Assembly: GCA_012295275.1 (NCBI GenBank)
Contig: CM022678.1
Coordinates: 19,344,001 to 19,408,000, forward strand
Length of the DNA: 64,000 nucleotides
Direction of reading: 5' to 3'
Source of the DNA: Chrysomallon squamiferum
Lineage: Eukaryota > Animalia > Mollusca
Positions 1,472 to 50,887 of the stretch are shown here, piece by piece (position 1 is the first letter of the stretch; each line of letters opens with the position of its first letter). The translations under genes and the position numbers were made by a program. The notes below the pieces were generated by a model. It had not been told where the DNA came from. It saw only the letters and a program-made list of their open reading frames with translations, and ran no database searches.

Positions 1472-3995
1472 ATGGCTGCGAAGAAACCACACAGCACAAC
1501 GTCATTAGAAGCGGATTTTTCAAGGATAAAAATTGGTGAGAAATACTAGATACAATGATAATGAAAAAATTGTATTTTGTTGCATTACTGCTTCATGCGA
1601 AACTGTTCTACTTTTTTACATAAACGCGTTATTCTCTCTCTTACAGATATTTATATTCAGACATCTGAATAAAAACACAGACATACGCAGACACACACAC
1701 ATATTTATACAAAAAAGATGGCGAGAGAGACATTCAGTAAATGAAGCATTATGTGATTACGAATCTGCAATTTTAAAAGAAAACAATTTCGAACATCTCA
1801 TCTTTAGAAAGGTACTTTTCCCCCGAAGTTATTCTTTCAGAAATCTGCAATTATGTAGATTTTATTTTTCAGCTACGGATGAGGACATTTCCTTGGAAAA
1901 TAGACTGGAATCGTTTCCTCACTCCTTTCATCTCACAGATCTCATGCTCTGCACTAAACAACGTAGAGAAAAAATACTTTTAAAGTTACAACGAGAACCG
2001 GAAGAAGAGAAACAGAGTTTGATGGAAAGAAATCGAGACGTCAATTTTATTTCCTTCATGCAGTTTTTGCTAGGAGATCAAGACAAGGCAATCGAGACAA
2101 ATTTAGAAGTCCGTCGTCGTGACCCTACTAACATTGTTGCTCGTGCAAACCGTGTGCGTTTTCTGTTAAAACACGATAAGCGTTCGTCTCAATCGGAATT
2201 AATTGAACTGGAAAACCTGAAGGGAGACGTTGAAAGAATGCGTGCTGTAGCTGAAGCTGAACTTGCTTATTGCTACGCTCGGATTTCACCAGCTTCTTAT
2301 CTAAAGTCTGTGGAGCTGTACAGAAAAGTAAACGAGAAATATCCAGAAGAATACGAATGGAAATTCGGAGAGGGTCTAACACTTAGACGAACTATGTCCA
2401 TTCAAAGCTATTCGTTTAATACTGATATCGATATGGTTGAATACGCTGTTAGATGCTGTAAAGTGCTAGAAGAAGTCGGCAGTAAGGGATTAGAACCGTT
2501 TAATGCGATGGCGTTTGCTGAGCTCGGGGAATTCGCGACTCGGTTTGAATTAAAAAACACACCATTTGATGATGAAATTGTGGTAGAAAGGTTTAAGCAA
2601 CAAACAACGCTGCTTTCGTGCGAGGAATATTTCCAGAAAGCTCTTGATTTAGATAAGCAGGACCCTTTTGTACTTGCAAGCTGCGGTAAGCATTTCCTAA
2701 ACAGAAGGCAACTGGATGACGCTGAGAGATTGTTAGAAGAGTCAGTGAGGCTTCGGCCGACAGGATATGGTCTTCAAAACCTGGGAAAAGTTCTGCTGAG
2801 AAAAGCGGAAAATGAAAGCAACCCGAGAAAATTTCAGCGTGCGATTAAGTATCTAAAACAGTCCGTTGATATAACACACGGCGAAAATTACAGTGCTATA
2901 CTTGACTTGGCTTCTGCTTACATGAATAGAAAATGTTACGAAGACGCTGAAGAGGTTCTAAAGGATATAATAGAAAGAGAAGAAATTGATACCAATCCGT
3001 TCAATAAAGTTGCTGCTTTGAAGAAAATGGGTATTATTTGTTTTGAAAAAGGTAAAAATCCATTACTTCCTCCAGATGAACAGGCTCGGCTGAGGAAAGA
3101 AGAAATAAACTACAGAACTCTTGCTATAGAAGTTTCTGCGCCAGAAGTGCTGTATAAATATCGGACTCATTTCAGAACAGTAACTGATTTGCTGAAGCAA
3201 ACGAAAGGTCCACGTGGAGTAGATATACCGTGGCAAGTTAAAGATGTTTACTCTATGATCAGTAAATTGGGCCGTACTCTTCCGGTTTATGAGAATATTA
3301 AAACCGGTATCAGGGACCTGAACACTGGATTGGAACTACAGAGAAATATCTTTATCGACAAGAATACGAAAAGGCCAGATTCTGTATAATTCTGTTGATG
3401 GGTACGCAACAAGCTGATTATATTCCTTTTCTTCTCGTCAGTCGAGTTTACCTGAAAACAGCACAGCATATCCTATCAAGAGGCGAGTCACCGGGTAAAG
3501 CTACGTCTTGTTTCAGAAGGATTTTGCGTTCTATTACAAAACGAACAAAGAAGGTGAAATAAATGCTGCTGATATCATGATTCTCCATGACAAAGACGAT
3601 TGCAAAACATCTGAGATGTCAAAGAAAATTCAGGAGATTCTTAAACACTACACAGGTCTTGAAGTCACGAGGAATGATGAACTTGCCTTTGAAGGAATGG
3701 ATGATATCTATTTTACAAACGACTGATGCCTCTTATTCGATGCATTGTCGTAGTTGTTAGTTCCGACCCTCCAAACTCACACTGGAAACAGGTGATTGAT
3801 TTGGCAATAGCAACTGCTACGAAGAATGAGAAAATGATGATTGTATGCTTGAAATCAGGAGAGACTCACCAAGTCATGGAACTGAATGATCTCAAAACAG
3901 GAAAAACTCCGCCAGACGATGCAGACGACAAAAGTGCTGTGTACTGGCTTTTCGAAACTTTTACACTTCTTGTTGATGGTGACGTCAGTTTGTAA
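1472..3995 (+). pseudogene. TPR(IFIT/TTC22-like)-TIR-like gene, copy 1; exon 1472-1535, intron 1536-1872, exon 1873-3995; three 1-nt deletions
   Basis: Spliced frame reads MAAKKPHSTTSLEADFSRIKI-A-TDEDISLENRLESFPHSFHL (donor G|GTGAGA, acceptor tttttcag|CT). Against the paralogues, single bases are missing at ~3304 (CCC>CC), ~3522 and ~3711 (T runs), which splits it into ORFs 1533-3389, 3508-3726 and 3726-3995. The poly(A) block found behind other copies is absent. Confidence 0.85.
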
Positions 3996-5215
3996 ATTTG
4001 ATACTTTACAGATCTTGACAAGAATTTTAATTGAACTGCATGGATTGTTCGACTTTATTCATCAAAATAATAATAATAACAATAATAATAATAATAATAA
4101 TAATAATAATAATTATAATCACATAAACAACAACAATTATGCTTATAATTATAATTATATAAGGATTCCTTCTCGAAAATGGTTGGATTGGAAATGTTTT
4201 TCCTTACTGAGTTTTCAGTTTTTGGAATGTAAAACGATAGTAGGAAAATATGGTCTGTTTTCAAAAGATAAATCCATAAACAGATGCTACAGTATATATA
4301 GCTTAAAGATTAAATCTACGTGTACAGGTTGTACAGACGGTCTATAGTTATTTTAATATACTTTTCAAAAACTTTATGGTTGAAATTAAATTTGTGTAAT
4401 CTAAAGTGTAATATAAGTATCATGCTTATTTATAATATAATATAATATAATATAAAGTTTTAATTAATCTTATTTTTATATAAAAGCTTTGTGTTACTGC
4501 CATCAGATGAAATGTTTACACCAAAATTTTGACCTTTTCAGCTTCATAATAATAATAATAATAATAATAATAATAAAAACGGGAAGAAATAGAAAACAAC
4601 AATAAAACTGACAGCATCAACGACAAGAATGGCGACAAGAACGGCATCAAGTCAGAAAATTACTATTACATCATTGGCATCAACGACAGCAAGAATAATA
4701 CAGTGAAAATGAATTTAATTTAAATTTGAATTTCTTTTTCATCTTCAAATTCGTTTCACATTTAAAATATAGAAACAATATGAACGAATAAAACTCTACT
4801 ACTGCTCTTTCTACTATCATTACTGTTCCTATTAACAGTATTTCTACGACGACTACTAATCATAATAATAATGGTTGTTAAGGAAATAAATAAAAATTAG
4901 CAGTGTCGTGTTTTGTTAAGGAACAACTATCCAGTCAAGTTTCAAAACCGGAGGTTCTGAAAAAAAATAAAAATAAAAATAAATAAATAAATAAATAAAT
5001 AAAAGAAAACGAATTAAATGAACAAATCAAAATATCGGCAGTACTAATGCGATGAATGAACAATAAATAAATTTTAGATGTAGATCGCCACATCAATATA
5101 TAGAGACACACAGACTGTAACACTGTAACATAATCATAGAATATTTTTCCCAAGCCATGATAGAAATTAGTTTTATTGTCATGTGTCATCGTTAAACAAA
5201 ACCTCATAAAAATCA

Positions 5216-48761: not shown

Positions 48762-50887
48762 CTACAGATGAGGACATTTCCTGCGAACATAGACTGGAAT
48801 CGTTTCCTCACTCCTTTCATCTTACAGATCTCATGTACTGCTCAAAACAGCATAGAGAAAAAGTACTTGAAAAGTTACAACGAGAACAAGAAGAAGAGAA
48901 ACGCAGTTTGATGGAAAGAAATCGAGACGACAATTTTATTTCGTTCTTACTGGTTTTGCTAGGAGATCGAGACAAGGCAATCGAGATAAACCTAAAAGTC
49001 TGTCGTCGTGACCATACTAACATTGTAGCTCATGCAAACCGTGTGCGTTTTCTGCAGAAAGTAGACGACCGTTCTGCTGAATCAGAATTAATCGAACTGG
49101 AAAACATGGAGGGAGACCTTGACAGAATGCGTGCTGTAGCTGAAGCTGAACTTGCTTATTGCTACGCTAGGATCTCGACAGCTTCTTATCCAAAGGCTCT
49201 GGAGTTGTATAGAAAAGTAAATCAGAACTATCCGGAAGAATACGAATGGAAATTTGGTGAGGGTCTAACACTTAGGCGATCTCTGTCCGCTCAAACCTAT
49301 TCAATTCAGTGAGGTGTGGATGTCGTTGAATACGCTGTTAGATGCTGTAAACTGCTACAAGAAGTCGGCAGTAAGGCACTAGAACCATTGAATGCCATGG
49401 CGTATGCCGAGCTTGGGCAATTGGCCAAGCGGCTTGAATTTAGATGGACACCATTTGAAGACAGAAGGTTCGTAGAGGCGGTGCAAGAACAAATTGAGCT
49501 GCTTTCGTGTCAGGAATATTTCCAGAAAGTTCTTGATTTAGGCAAACGCGTCCCCTTTGTGCTTGCTAGGTGCGGTAAGCATTTCCTATGCTCAAAGCAA
49601 CTGGATAAAGCTAAGAAACTGTTAGAAGAGTCAGTCAGGCTTCTGCCTACAGGCAATGCTCTTCATCAGTTGGGAAAAGTTCTTCTGAGAAAATCGAAAC
49701 ATGACAGGAACAGGACAACATTTCAGCGTCCGATAGAAACTTTAAAACAGAGCGTTGAAATCACACACGGCGAAAATTTTGATGCGGCACATGACTTGGC
49801 TTCCGCTTACATCACTAATAAATCCTTTGAAGATGCTGAATCCGTCTTAAGGGATGTAATAGAAGGAGCGGAAAATGATACCAATGCGTTCTATAAAGTT
49901 TCTGCTTGAAAGAAATTGTCTAATATCTGTTTTGAAAAAAGTAAAAATCGGACACTTTCTCCAGGTGAACAGGCTCGGCTCAGGAAAGAAGAAGTAAACT
50001 ACAAAATTCTTGCTATAGAAGCTTCTGCTTCAGAAGTGCTGCACAAATATCGCTCTCATTTCAGAACGGTAACTGATTTGCTGAATGAAAGGAATGGTCC
50101 GCCTGGAAAAGAAATACCGTGGCAATTTAAAGATGTTTACTGCATGCTAAATGAATTCGCACCTTCTCTTCCGATTTATAGGAAAATTCAAACCCGATAT
50201 CAGGGACCAGAAGACTGGATTGGAATTACACAGGAATATCTTGACCGACAAGAATTCGAAAACACCAGACTCTATGTCAATCTGCTGATGGGTACGCTAC
50301 AAGCTGATGACATTCCTTCTTCTCTTGTCAGTAGAGTTTATCTGAAAACAGCACAGCAGATCTTATCAAGAGGCCAGTCTCCGAGTAAAGCTTGGTTTTG
50401 TTTCAGAAGGATTTTTACGTTCTATTACAAAACAAACAAAGAAGATGAAACAAACGGTGCTGATATCATGATCCTCAATGACAAAGACGACTGGCAAACA
50501 TCTCAGATTACAATGAAGATTCAGAAAGTTCTGGAAGACTATACAGGTCTTGAAGTCACGAGGAATGATGAACTTGCCTTTGTAGGAATGAATGAAATCT
50601 CTTTCTACAAACGACTGATGCCTCTTGTTCGATGCGTTGTTGTAGTTGTTAGTTCCGAGACTCCAAACACACACTGGAAAAAGGTAATTGATTTGGCAAT
50701 AGCAACTGCTACGAAGAAGGAGAAGATGATGATTGTATGCTTGAAATCACGAGAGACTCACCAAGTCACTGAACTGAACAATTTCAGAACAGGAAAAACT
50801 CCACCAGACGATGCAGACGACAAAACTGCAGTGGACTGGCTGCTGGAAACTTTTCCACTTCTTGTCAATGCTGACGTCAATTTGTAA
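48762..50887 (+). pseudogene. TPR-TIR-like gene, copy 7; full main exon with two in-frame TGA stops, ATG exon deleted
   Basis: Acceptor ttttcag|CT at 48761. ORFs 48740-49312, 49316-49909 and 49916-50887 are all in one frame. Upstream, tattttgtg runs straight into (GA)n at ~48507, where copy 3 has the ATG exon. Confidence 0.9.

Follow-up and report, generated by a model that had tools for sequence, protein, structure and literature searches.

Tandem genes joining an IFIT-like TPR body to a TIR domain in Chrysomallon squamiferum: a candidate cytosolic RNA 5′-end receptor family

We analysed a 64,000-nucleotide stretch of the Chrysomallon squamiferum genome, hereafter the window. A tblastn search of the window located seven paralogues within 1857–50884, all on the + strand (as are all the features given below), in agreement with the preliminary description of this DNA, which had counted seven same-strand copies. 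Only copy 4 is intact. Its large exon (37202..39333) is joined by a GT..AG splice to a small exon at 36780–36846, which yields an ORF of 732 aa. The large exon of copy 1 (1873..3995) carries three frameshifts, near 3305, 3523, and 3714, and is broken ahead of and inside its TIR domain. Copy 2 (8802..10845) is a pseudogene with a 97-bp deletion near 9168, two further frameshifts, and stops at 9056, 9896, and 10324. Copy 3 (20376..22494) has a single 1-bp deletion, a frameshift near 20474, which could mark either a pseudogene or an assembly error. Copy 5 (40990..42828) is truncated at its 5′-end: some 100 codons are missing from the start of its large exon, the remainder being open. Copy 6 amounts to a 396-bp fragment (44899..45294) interrupted by stops at 45124 and 45223, and copy 7 (48762..50887) has stops at 49310 and 49907. 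The dN/dS ratio was 0.46–0.58 in all 15 copy pairs, so that no overall positive selection was seen. With one copy in seven intact and dN/dS about 0.5, the cluster fits the proposal that it is a birth-and-death array, here of an IFIT-TIR gene. The remaining 27 complex ORFs of the window (28 were listed) had no Pfam match above cut-off.

Each copy had been described as a tiny ATG exon followed by one large coding exon. The ATG exon was found for three of the seven copies only, namely copy 1 (1468..1535, ATG at 1472; 21 codons plus 1 nt), copy 3 (19924..19991, ATG at 19928), and copy 4 (36776..36846, ATG at 36780; 22 codons plus 1 nt), and was not found for copy 7. These small exons, of 21–22 codons plus one base, end in phase 1. 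A splice-acceptor-like AG precedes the ATG exon, so the gene probably begins with another exon. A conserved module of TATA, CAGTT, a stretch of ~47 nt and GTAAGT occurs nine times upstream of copies and, judged from the sequence, likely represents a core promoter with a non-coding exon 1. Putative examples are found at 6010..6084 (TATA-like 6010, donor 6085), 7207..7282 (TATA-like 7207, CAGTT 7237, donor 7283), 8438..8514 upstream of copy 2 (TATA 8438, CAGTT 8468, donor 8515), 19089..19165 upstream of copy 3 (TATA 19089, CAGTT 19119, donor 19166), and 30586..30662, the nearest upstream of copy 4 (TATA 30586, CAGTT 30616, donor 30663). IFIT genes have two exons, the first of which codes for merely the ATG and 2 nt (PMC3688568), whereas the small exon here encodes 22 residues in phase 1 and probably follows a non-coding exon. 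The suggested likeness to IFIT gene structure is thus superficial and, since exon content and phase differ, it was dropped as evidence of kinship. IFIT1 and IFIT5 do share with the snail genes a tandem cluster and a protein body held in one large exon.

The expression of IFIT genes is ISRE-driven and is induced by interferon or virus. The ISRE motif GAAANNGAAA had 29 matches against 7.8 expected; where the matches fall near ATG exons, the T-rich sequence around them is unconserved. As the excess was conserved neither at promoters nor at ATG exons, the ISRE argument was dropped. Four RNA-library contigs (294, 206, 597, and 182 nt, with 0, 0, 2, and 0 differences, respectively) cover copy 4. They come from one study and could include DNA present in the libraries. 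The splice joint was absent from the RNA contigs over 23100–40700, which is uninformative either way.

The IFIT-like TPR body of copy 4 occupies 37202..38880 (large-exon residues 1–560). Pfam TPR_19 scored above cut-off in all four long ORFs scanned, in line with the TPR-like helix pairs noted earlier. Searched as a single sequence against Pfam and the PDB, copy 4 gave generic TPR alone, with no TIR and no IFIT. The predicted fold of residues 1–560 aligns with residues 2–482 of human IFIT5 (Z 25.9, rmsd 5.8, 441 aligned), and ranks 1–12 are IFIT1 or IFIT5 throughout, against a top non-IFIT Z of 15.9. Identity in the structural alignment with IFITs is 13–15%. By Foldseek, the TM-score normalised by target is 0.56–0.62 for full-length IFIT1/5 versus 0.18 for the full chains of SPY/OGT. 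A family profile matched IFIT5 (E 1e-34) and IFIT1 (3e-32) in register from the N-terminus; the best non-IFIT natural protein was BBS4 (4e-18), and only designed consensus TPRs matched the IFIT scores. The claim that the N-terminal part is nearer to IFIT than to generic TPRs is therefore borne out by both profile (1e-34 versus 4e-18) and fold (25.9 versus 15.9), the likeness to jawed-vertebrate IFIT1/IFIT5 (PDB 4hor, 3zgq, 5w5h, and 6c6k) being whole-length in fold and collinear in sequence profile. A lynx IFIT1-like protein ranked first among 120 profile-selected TPR proteins over three N-terminal segments, but only 89th of 120 over residues 325–560. The pairwise reverse search with this lynx protein did not pick out the family: by whole-protein score, 15 generic TPR proteins came ahead of its first member, and in BLAST the best match was a generic TPR.

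IFITs bind 5′ppp or cap0 RNA. Across 61 rows of the family alignment, K/R is best conserved at columns 180 (57 rows), 179 (52), 144 (52), 283 (48), 101 (46), and 280 (45). Four of these six correspond to IFIT5 residues: columns 180, 144, 283, and 280 match R186, K150, R260, and K257, by a hand count on the profile alignment for which the lynx IFIT1-like protein gives the same register. The roles of these residues are taken from secondary papers: PMC9677429 (Table 5) gives K150, R186, and R260 of IFIT5 as important in RNA binding, and PMC13197388 names K257 as an RNA contact. Of the tunnel residues (IFIT5 K150, Y156, R186, R253, K257, R260, H287, Q288, and R294), the family as a whole retains most except R253, whose column is non-basic in most members with Glu commonest, a point in which the family differs from IFIT5. 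An equivalent of IFIT1 W147 is also shared. Lamprey and amphioxus members retain most of the four IFIT5-matched basic residues. Copy 4 keeps the equivalents of K150 (R144), Y156, R186 (R180), H287, and Q288 and is without those of R253, K257 (Asn), R260, and R294. The equivalents of R260 and of R294 are both Leu in the six local copies, out of six, that cover those columns, and copies 3 and 5 have Glu at the K150 position. In this cluster the tunnel is eroded, which, like the net charge of −13 of copy 4, counts against the main reading given below.

The local copies have lost the basic residues for contacts to downstream nucleotides, which would suit a different ligand: the TPR groove would be a TTC22-type scaffold that binds a protein of the host or of a pathogen, or else a small phosphorylated compound, and relays this through the TIR. 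The closest homologue, P0002, points the same way: its nearest outside model in the ESM Atlas is a chordate TTC22 cluster (TM 0.50/0.64, the latter by target; 462 aligned, residues 8–511), no IFIT being among the best 10 matches listed. The likeness to TTC22 in the preliminary description thus holds as that of the best outside structural neighbour, a comparison by structure model only, with a 565-aa representative for which TPR families alone are listed and which, unlike the snail proteins, is without a TIR. TTC22 may even be a closer relative than IFIT, and TTC22 sequences were absent from the homologue search results, a motif check included. We nevertheless consider a scaffold that does not bind RNA quite unlikely, as the best-conserved basic columns are IFIT RNA contacts, and repeated lineage-specific expansion and loss would suit pathogen-facing genes more than housekeeping scaffolds.

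The part of the protein that IFIT, which is TPR-only, does not have is a C-terminal domain of ~140 aa, which in copy 4 lies at 38908..39309 (large-exon residues 570–703). The alpha/beta fold expected of it was predicted with a pLDDT of 91.9, and its reading as a TIR was upheld, since the best 12 structure-comparison rows were all TIR domains. The top match was IL-1RAcPb (Z 15.4, rmsd 2.6, 135 aligned), and further matches included IL-18Rb (14.6), SARM1 (13.2, rank 3), MyD88 (13.1), and the TIR-STING of oyster (rank 6). In the predicted model, the C-terminus is a flavodoxin-like TIR fold of betaA–E and alphaA–E. Sequence evidence comes through relatives: an amphioxus member matched the TLR15 TIR (E 2.6e-6), and a profile of nine mostly deuterostome members matched TLR15, TIRAP, and TLR3. 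Pfam TIR_2 scored above cut-off in the relatives P0045 and P0083, and at E ≤ 1e-4 in one of the 52 members scanned. In the snail lineage the domain falls below Pfam detection. The snail domain shares with TLR/IL-1R-type TIRs (IL-1RAcPb, IL-18Rb, MyD88, TIRAP, and TLR15) the five-stranded fold (Z 12–15) and, via amphioxus members, sequence similarity, but it sits behind an IFIT body in a protein without a membrane anchor or death domain. The highest hydropathy over 19 residues in copy 4 is 1.39; there is therefore no TM helix, as had been claimed.

The TIR likely lacks the catalytic Glu, judging by the alignments. Column 644, the likeliest catalytic position, holds Val in all six local copies covering it; in the family it is L, Y, or F in 37 of 53 rows, and its seven commonest residues (48/53 rows) exclude Glu. 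The neighbouring column 645 is hydrophobic too. The register was judged by alignments rather than coordinates, with a two-residue ambiguity, and an acidic residue (Asp or Glu) occupies column 646, two residues from where the catalytic Glu is expected, in 19 of 53 rows; one amphioxus member has a Glu aligned with the alphaC Glu of TLRs. These residues, together with the fold ranks of SARM1 and TIR-STING, would favour a sensor-activated TIR enzyme, in which the ligand triggers NAD+ cleavage or synthesis of a nucleotide signal, as in SARM1, TIR-STING, and bacterial TIR-TPR defence. Such an enzyme appears very improbable given columns 644 and 645 and the sequence matches, which are to TLR, TIRAP, and MyD88 TIRs.

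Another conceivable role is that of an IFIT-style effector or brake. The BB loop, where TLR-type signalling TIRs have Pro-Gly, reads F-E-G in copy 4 (Pro in 22 and Gly in 31 of 53 rows), and this degenerate loop, the likely missing Glu and the closest fold being IL-1RAcPb could indicate that the TIR is a decoy or dampener of TLR/MyD88 rather than a trigger, with the tunnel sequestering non-self RNA ends and blocking translation, as IFITs are described to do (PMC3950709 and PMC13197388). We regard this as unlikely. Of 150 relatives, 108 carry the C-terminal domain, in molluscs and deuterostomes alike, so that the TIR fusion is the family norm, and the TIR is not decaying, because it has the lowest dN among the parts of the local copies (0.075–0.127 versus 0.13–0.28 in the TPR parts).

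Relatives include gastropods, bivalves, octopus, amphioxus, acorn worm, and lamprey; among the orthologues are XP_078576702.1 of amphioxus and XP_032821243.1 of lamprey. A word-indexed homologue search found none among the 7994 candidates that it scored, which reflects a limit of sensitivity because another search found 198 homologues. Amphioxus and echinoderm proteins are automatically annotated as TPR + TIR_2, and those of amphioxus belong to the family. Gerdol and colleagues reportedly described ecTIR-DC families in 2017. TPR-TIR fusions were suspected to be catalogued in invertebrates, and a figure legend does list an oyster ‘TIR-TPR’ class (PMC4346834), which, like the amphioxus and echinoderm proteins, combines both domain types in a single protein; it is defined by domain combination only, and ‘IFIT’ is absent from the main text of that paper. 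Our literature search found no IFIT link for TIR-TPR proteins. The oyster TIR-STING (PDB 6wt7) is likewise an invertebrate form of a vertebrate immune protein with its own TIR, but it has another sensor domain and its TIR comes first in the chain. A 2013 study (PMC3688568) reported IFITs in jawed vertebrates only, with none in lamprey, lancelet, or acorn worm. Zebrafish IFIT5A has a long C-terminus (residues 509–773, PMC3688568), which might be a remnant of a TIR. In quick trees of 33 rows and then 20 (13 rows dropped), the single IFIT, from lynx, had a long branch of ~3 outside the deuterostome group, with no starred placement, and its grouping with lamprey was not rejected (p-AU 0.205, with one IFIT in the tree).

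The protein is likely a cytosolic sensor of RNA 5′ ends that would signal through a non-enzymatic TIR. We would give a probability of roughly one half to the full reading of the locus, a birth-and-death IFIT-TIR array encoding one-chain cytosolic RNA 5′-end receptors with an IFIT-like tunnel and a non-enzymatic TIR. It builds on the array with its single intact copy, on the homology of the two parts and their predicted folds, on the spread of the family across molluscs and deuterostomes, and on tunnel residues that are conserved throughout the family. In this model, a foreign RNA would be held by its phosphorylated 5′ end in the IFIT-like tunnel, whereupon the TIR would cluster and bring in TIR adaptors, likely without acting as an enzyme, with NF-kB or IRF as the presumed output. 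Both RNA as the ligand and ligand-driven TIR assembly are suppositions of this model, and a cytosolic location is suggested by the absence of a TM helix.

As the same form is found from molluscs to lamprey, the family is likely an old RNA-sensing receptor. Most of its mollusc members are missed by Pfam-based TIR catalogues (TIR_2 in 1/52). Tentatively, it may represent an unrecognised bilaterian class of cytosolic pattern-recognition receptors for RNA 5′ ends, which persists in molluscs, ambulacrarians, amphioxus, and lamprey and from which IFITs and TTC22 of jawed vertebrates would have arisen by loss of the TIR; a sensor that signals by itself would thereby have become an effector induced by interferon. 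IFITs were reported to have arisen with jawed vertebrates and interferon (PMC3688568), yet proteins with a predicted full-length IFIT fold and conserved tunnel residues, joined to a TIR, are now found in lamprey, lancelet, and acorn worm and across molluscs. The origin of IFITs thereby becomes directly testable, and animals without interferon gain a candidate RNA sensor.

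A copy 4 query matched seven loci in the window, all on the + strand (tblastn), and in a codon alignment copy 4 (large exon 37202..39333) was the only whole copy among them. Protein positions here count from the first codon of this exon (position 1, window 37201); adding 22 gives the position in the 732-aa protein. Three frameshifts interrupt copy 1; copy 2 has a 97-bp deletion, two further frameshifts and stops; and copy 7 has two stops, while copy 5 is without about its first 100 codons and copy 6 is a fragment. In copy 3 there is a single 1-bp deletion near 20474, possibly an error in the assembly. 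Across all 15 pairs of six copies, dN/dS was 0.46-0.58 and dS 0.28-0.41, which shows that the copies stayed under constraint for the greater part of their existence and decayed only late. The preliminary description of seven same-strand paralogues therefore stands, but the tiny ATG exon that it gave to every copy was found for copies 1, 3 and 4 only. A 200-base N run at 63722-63921 marks an assembly gap.

A conserved, promoter-like TATA-CAGTT-donor module occurs nine times upstream of copies in the window, with splice donors at 6085, 7283, 8515, 15859, 19166, 26540, 27463, 30663 and 47637 (eight GTAAGT, one GTATGT). The TATA-like word lies exactly 30 nt 5' of CAGTT in four of the nine. Because this module recurs and an acceptor-like AG precedes the small ATG exon, the gene likely has three exons, judging from DNA alone. 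The modules outnumber the gene bodies, which suggests that they act as alternative promoters or are left over from copies that were lost. In the copy 2 module the exon ends in ATGT before the donor GT (8511-8514), and a possible in-frame splice to the large exon at 8802 would yield an IFIT-like, ATG-only first exon. This is probably chance, since copy 2 is broken and the module at 6085 ends identically.

The AlphaFold model of the copy 4 N-terminal part (mean pLDDT 89.8, pTM 0.89) matched IFIT5 along its whole length (Z 25.9, rmsd 5.8, 441 aligned). IFIT1 or IFIT5 held ranks 1-12 of the fold search, against Z 15.9 for the best other TPR protein. Foldseek E-values placed SPY first, yet with rmsd 33 and TM 0.2; IFITs, by comparison, gave a TM of about 0.6 at rmsd 8-9. 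A 61-row family profile returned IFIT5 at E 1e-34 and IFIT1 at 3e-32, versus BBS4 at 4e-18, so that the proposed likeness to IFIT beyond generic TPRs was borne out by fold and profile alike. A lynx IFIT1-like protein ranked 1/120 for segments 1-185, 1-320 and 186-320 and 89/120 for segment 325-560; a pairwise reverse search from it did not single out the IFIT-TIR family, in which an IFIT-like TPR body and a TIR domain share one chain. Homology of the N-terminal part with IFIT is well supported. For P0002, the closest homologue, the nearest outside Atlas model was TTC22; a scaffold of TTC22 type whose ligand is not RNA appears unlikely.

Folded alone, the C-terminal part reached pLDDT 91.9, and its top 12 fold matches among 48,161 chains were TIR domains; Foldseek gave the MyD88 TIR first and a flavodoxin-like chain second. 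The TIR fold suggested earlier is thereby supported. Relatives link this part by sequence to TLR15, TLR1, TIRAP and MyD88, and separate scans found Pfam TIR_2 in 1/52 relatives at E<=1e-4 and 4/12 at E<=0.05. The likely catalytic position, with a register doubt of two residues, is Val in the window copies and hydrophobic across the family, and a TIR enzyme seems highly improbable. We regard an IFIT-like effector carrying the domain as a decoy TIR as rather doubtful.

A phmmer search of 1.84 billion representatives gave 198 matches at E<=0.001. The C-terminal domain was present in 108 of the 150 matches listed (iterated profile, last 145 residues), and many of the other 42 were short. Taxon was checked for 30 of the 150 listed, 21 of which had a named cluster. 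Gigantopelta was the closest relative among taxa checked (34-39% identity); other molluscan members came from Haliotis, Pomacea, Batillaria, Patella, Lottia, Physella, Plakobranchus, Sinanodonta, Tegillarca and Octopus, and deuterostome members from Branchiostoma, Saccoglossus and three lamprey genera. Separate searches added Ostrea and additional Branchiostoma. A lamprey protein could be aligned with the profile of the family across 715 columns (E 6e-52; C-terminal domain E 3.7e-11). An Atlas echinoderm cluster had a feature score of 0.97, and 91% of its 54 members carry TIR_2. A quick 33-row tree separated seven deuterostome-labelled rows (six named, plus one unnamed neighbour of the acorn-worm protein) from all others (97); it grouped lamprey with two rows from amphioxus (98) and copy 4 with Gigantopelta (98). 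Taxon spread and tree make it likely that the host is a gastropod and that the family dates to the bilaterian ancestor.

In many relatives, including P0004, P0008, P0052, P0085 and P0284, a long low-complexity insert rich in Arg and Gly lies near large-exon residue 323. It may be a disordered loop that binds RNA, and it is absent from the window copies. In the Batillaria relative P0005 (1941 aa), a single predicted chain apparently contains two IFIT-TIR units; the gene model may have fused tandem copies. Lamprey records P0290-P0297 include an 839-840-aa form and short isoforms of 331-363 aa that, if N-terminal, would be without the TIR.

IFIT5 residues with RNA roles, taken from the available portions of PMC9677429 (including Table 5) and PMC13197388, were hand-mapped on family-profile alignments, and a second, independent alignment that includes the lynx protein served as a check. 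Of the 710 columns, the six in which basic residues are best conserved include the equivalents of R186, K150, R260 and K257. The H287 column holds His in 51/61 rows and the IFIT1 W147 column Tyr or Phe in 52/61; the R253 column is not kept, and the one after it holds Arg or Lys in 37/61. Lamprey and amphioxus members retain most of the mapped residues. In the window, the copies keep the deep residues, with R180 in 7/7 and R or K at large-exon residue 144 (matching IFIT5 K150) in 4/6. Copies 3 and 5 have Glu at residue 144, which reverses the charge at this point of the predicted ligand pocket. At the equivalents of R260 and R294 the window copies have Leu, so their ligand may differ from that of the family.

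Four contigs of RNA-library run X1 (294, 206, 597 and 182 nt) matched copy 4 with 0, 0, 2 and 0 differences; the RNA evidence comes from three runs of one study, whose contigs give neither level nor strand and could include DNA carry-over. In run X3, over 37188-39535, summed contig depth was 1078-3191 across the coding exon, mostly above other bins (48-1032), and contigs there had many variant letters. Depth is not a copy number, and together with the variants it hints at further paralogues elsewhere in the genome.

At a probability of roughly 0.5, we favour a soluble receptor, a reading whose architecture and conservation the analysis shows. For its ligand, assembly and output, we infer that an RNA 5' end would be bound in the IFIT tunnel, that binding would drive clustering of a non-enzymatic TIR, and that the clustered TIR would recruit adaptors.

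A full-text literature search, with most subscription journals outside its coverage, found no paper linking IFIT to TIR fusion. In the portions available, PMC4346834 names an oyster 'TIR-TPR' class, PMC9334734 lists only the abbreviation for TIR-TPR, and PMC6321704, PMC8195603 and PMC6723221 do not describe the family. IFITs are reported only from jawed vertebrates, with lamprey, lancelet and acorn worm BLAST candidates rejected (PMC3688568, available portion). The present family is kept apart from IFIT, since it departs from two features that define IFITs, namely a TPR-only protein without a signalling domain and a two-exon gene whose first exon codes for ATG plus 2 nt. The lone IFIT in the tree (lynx, branch about 3 changes per column) fell outside the deuterostome group without support; grouping it with lamprey was not rejected (p-AU 0.205, in a tree with one IFIT on a long branch). 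The cluster is a real, partly decayed one of a widespread IFIT-TIR family, a variant built from known parts, and it is plausible that IFITs arose from an IFIT-TIR form by loss of the TIR.
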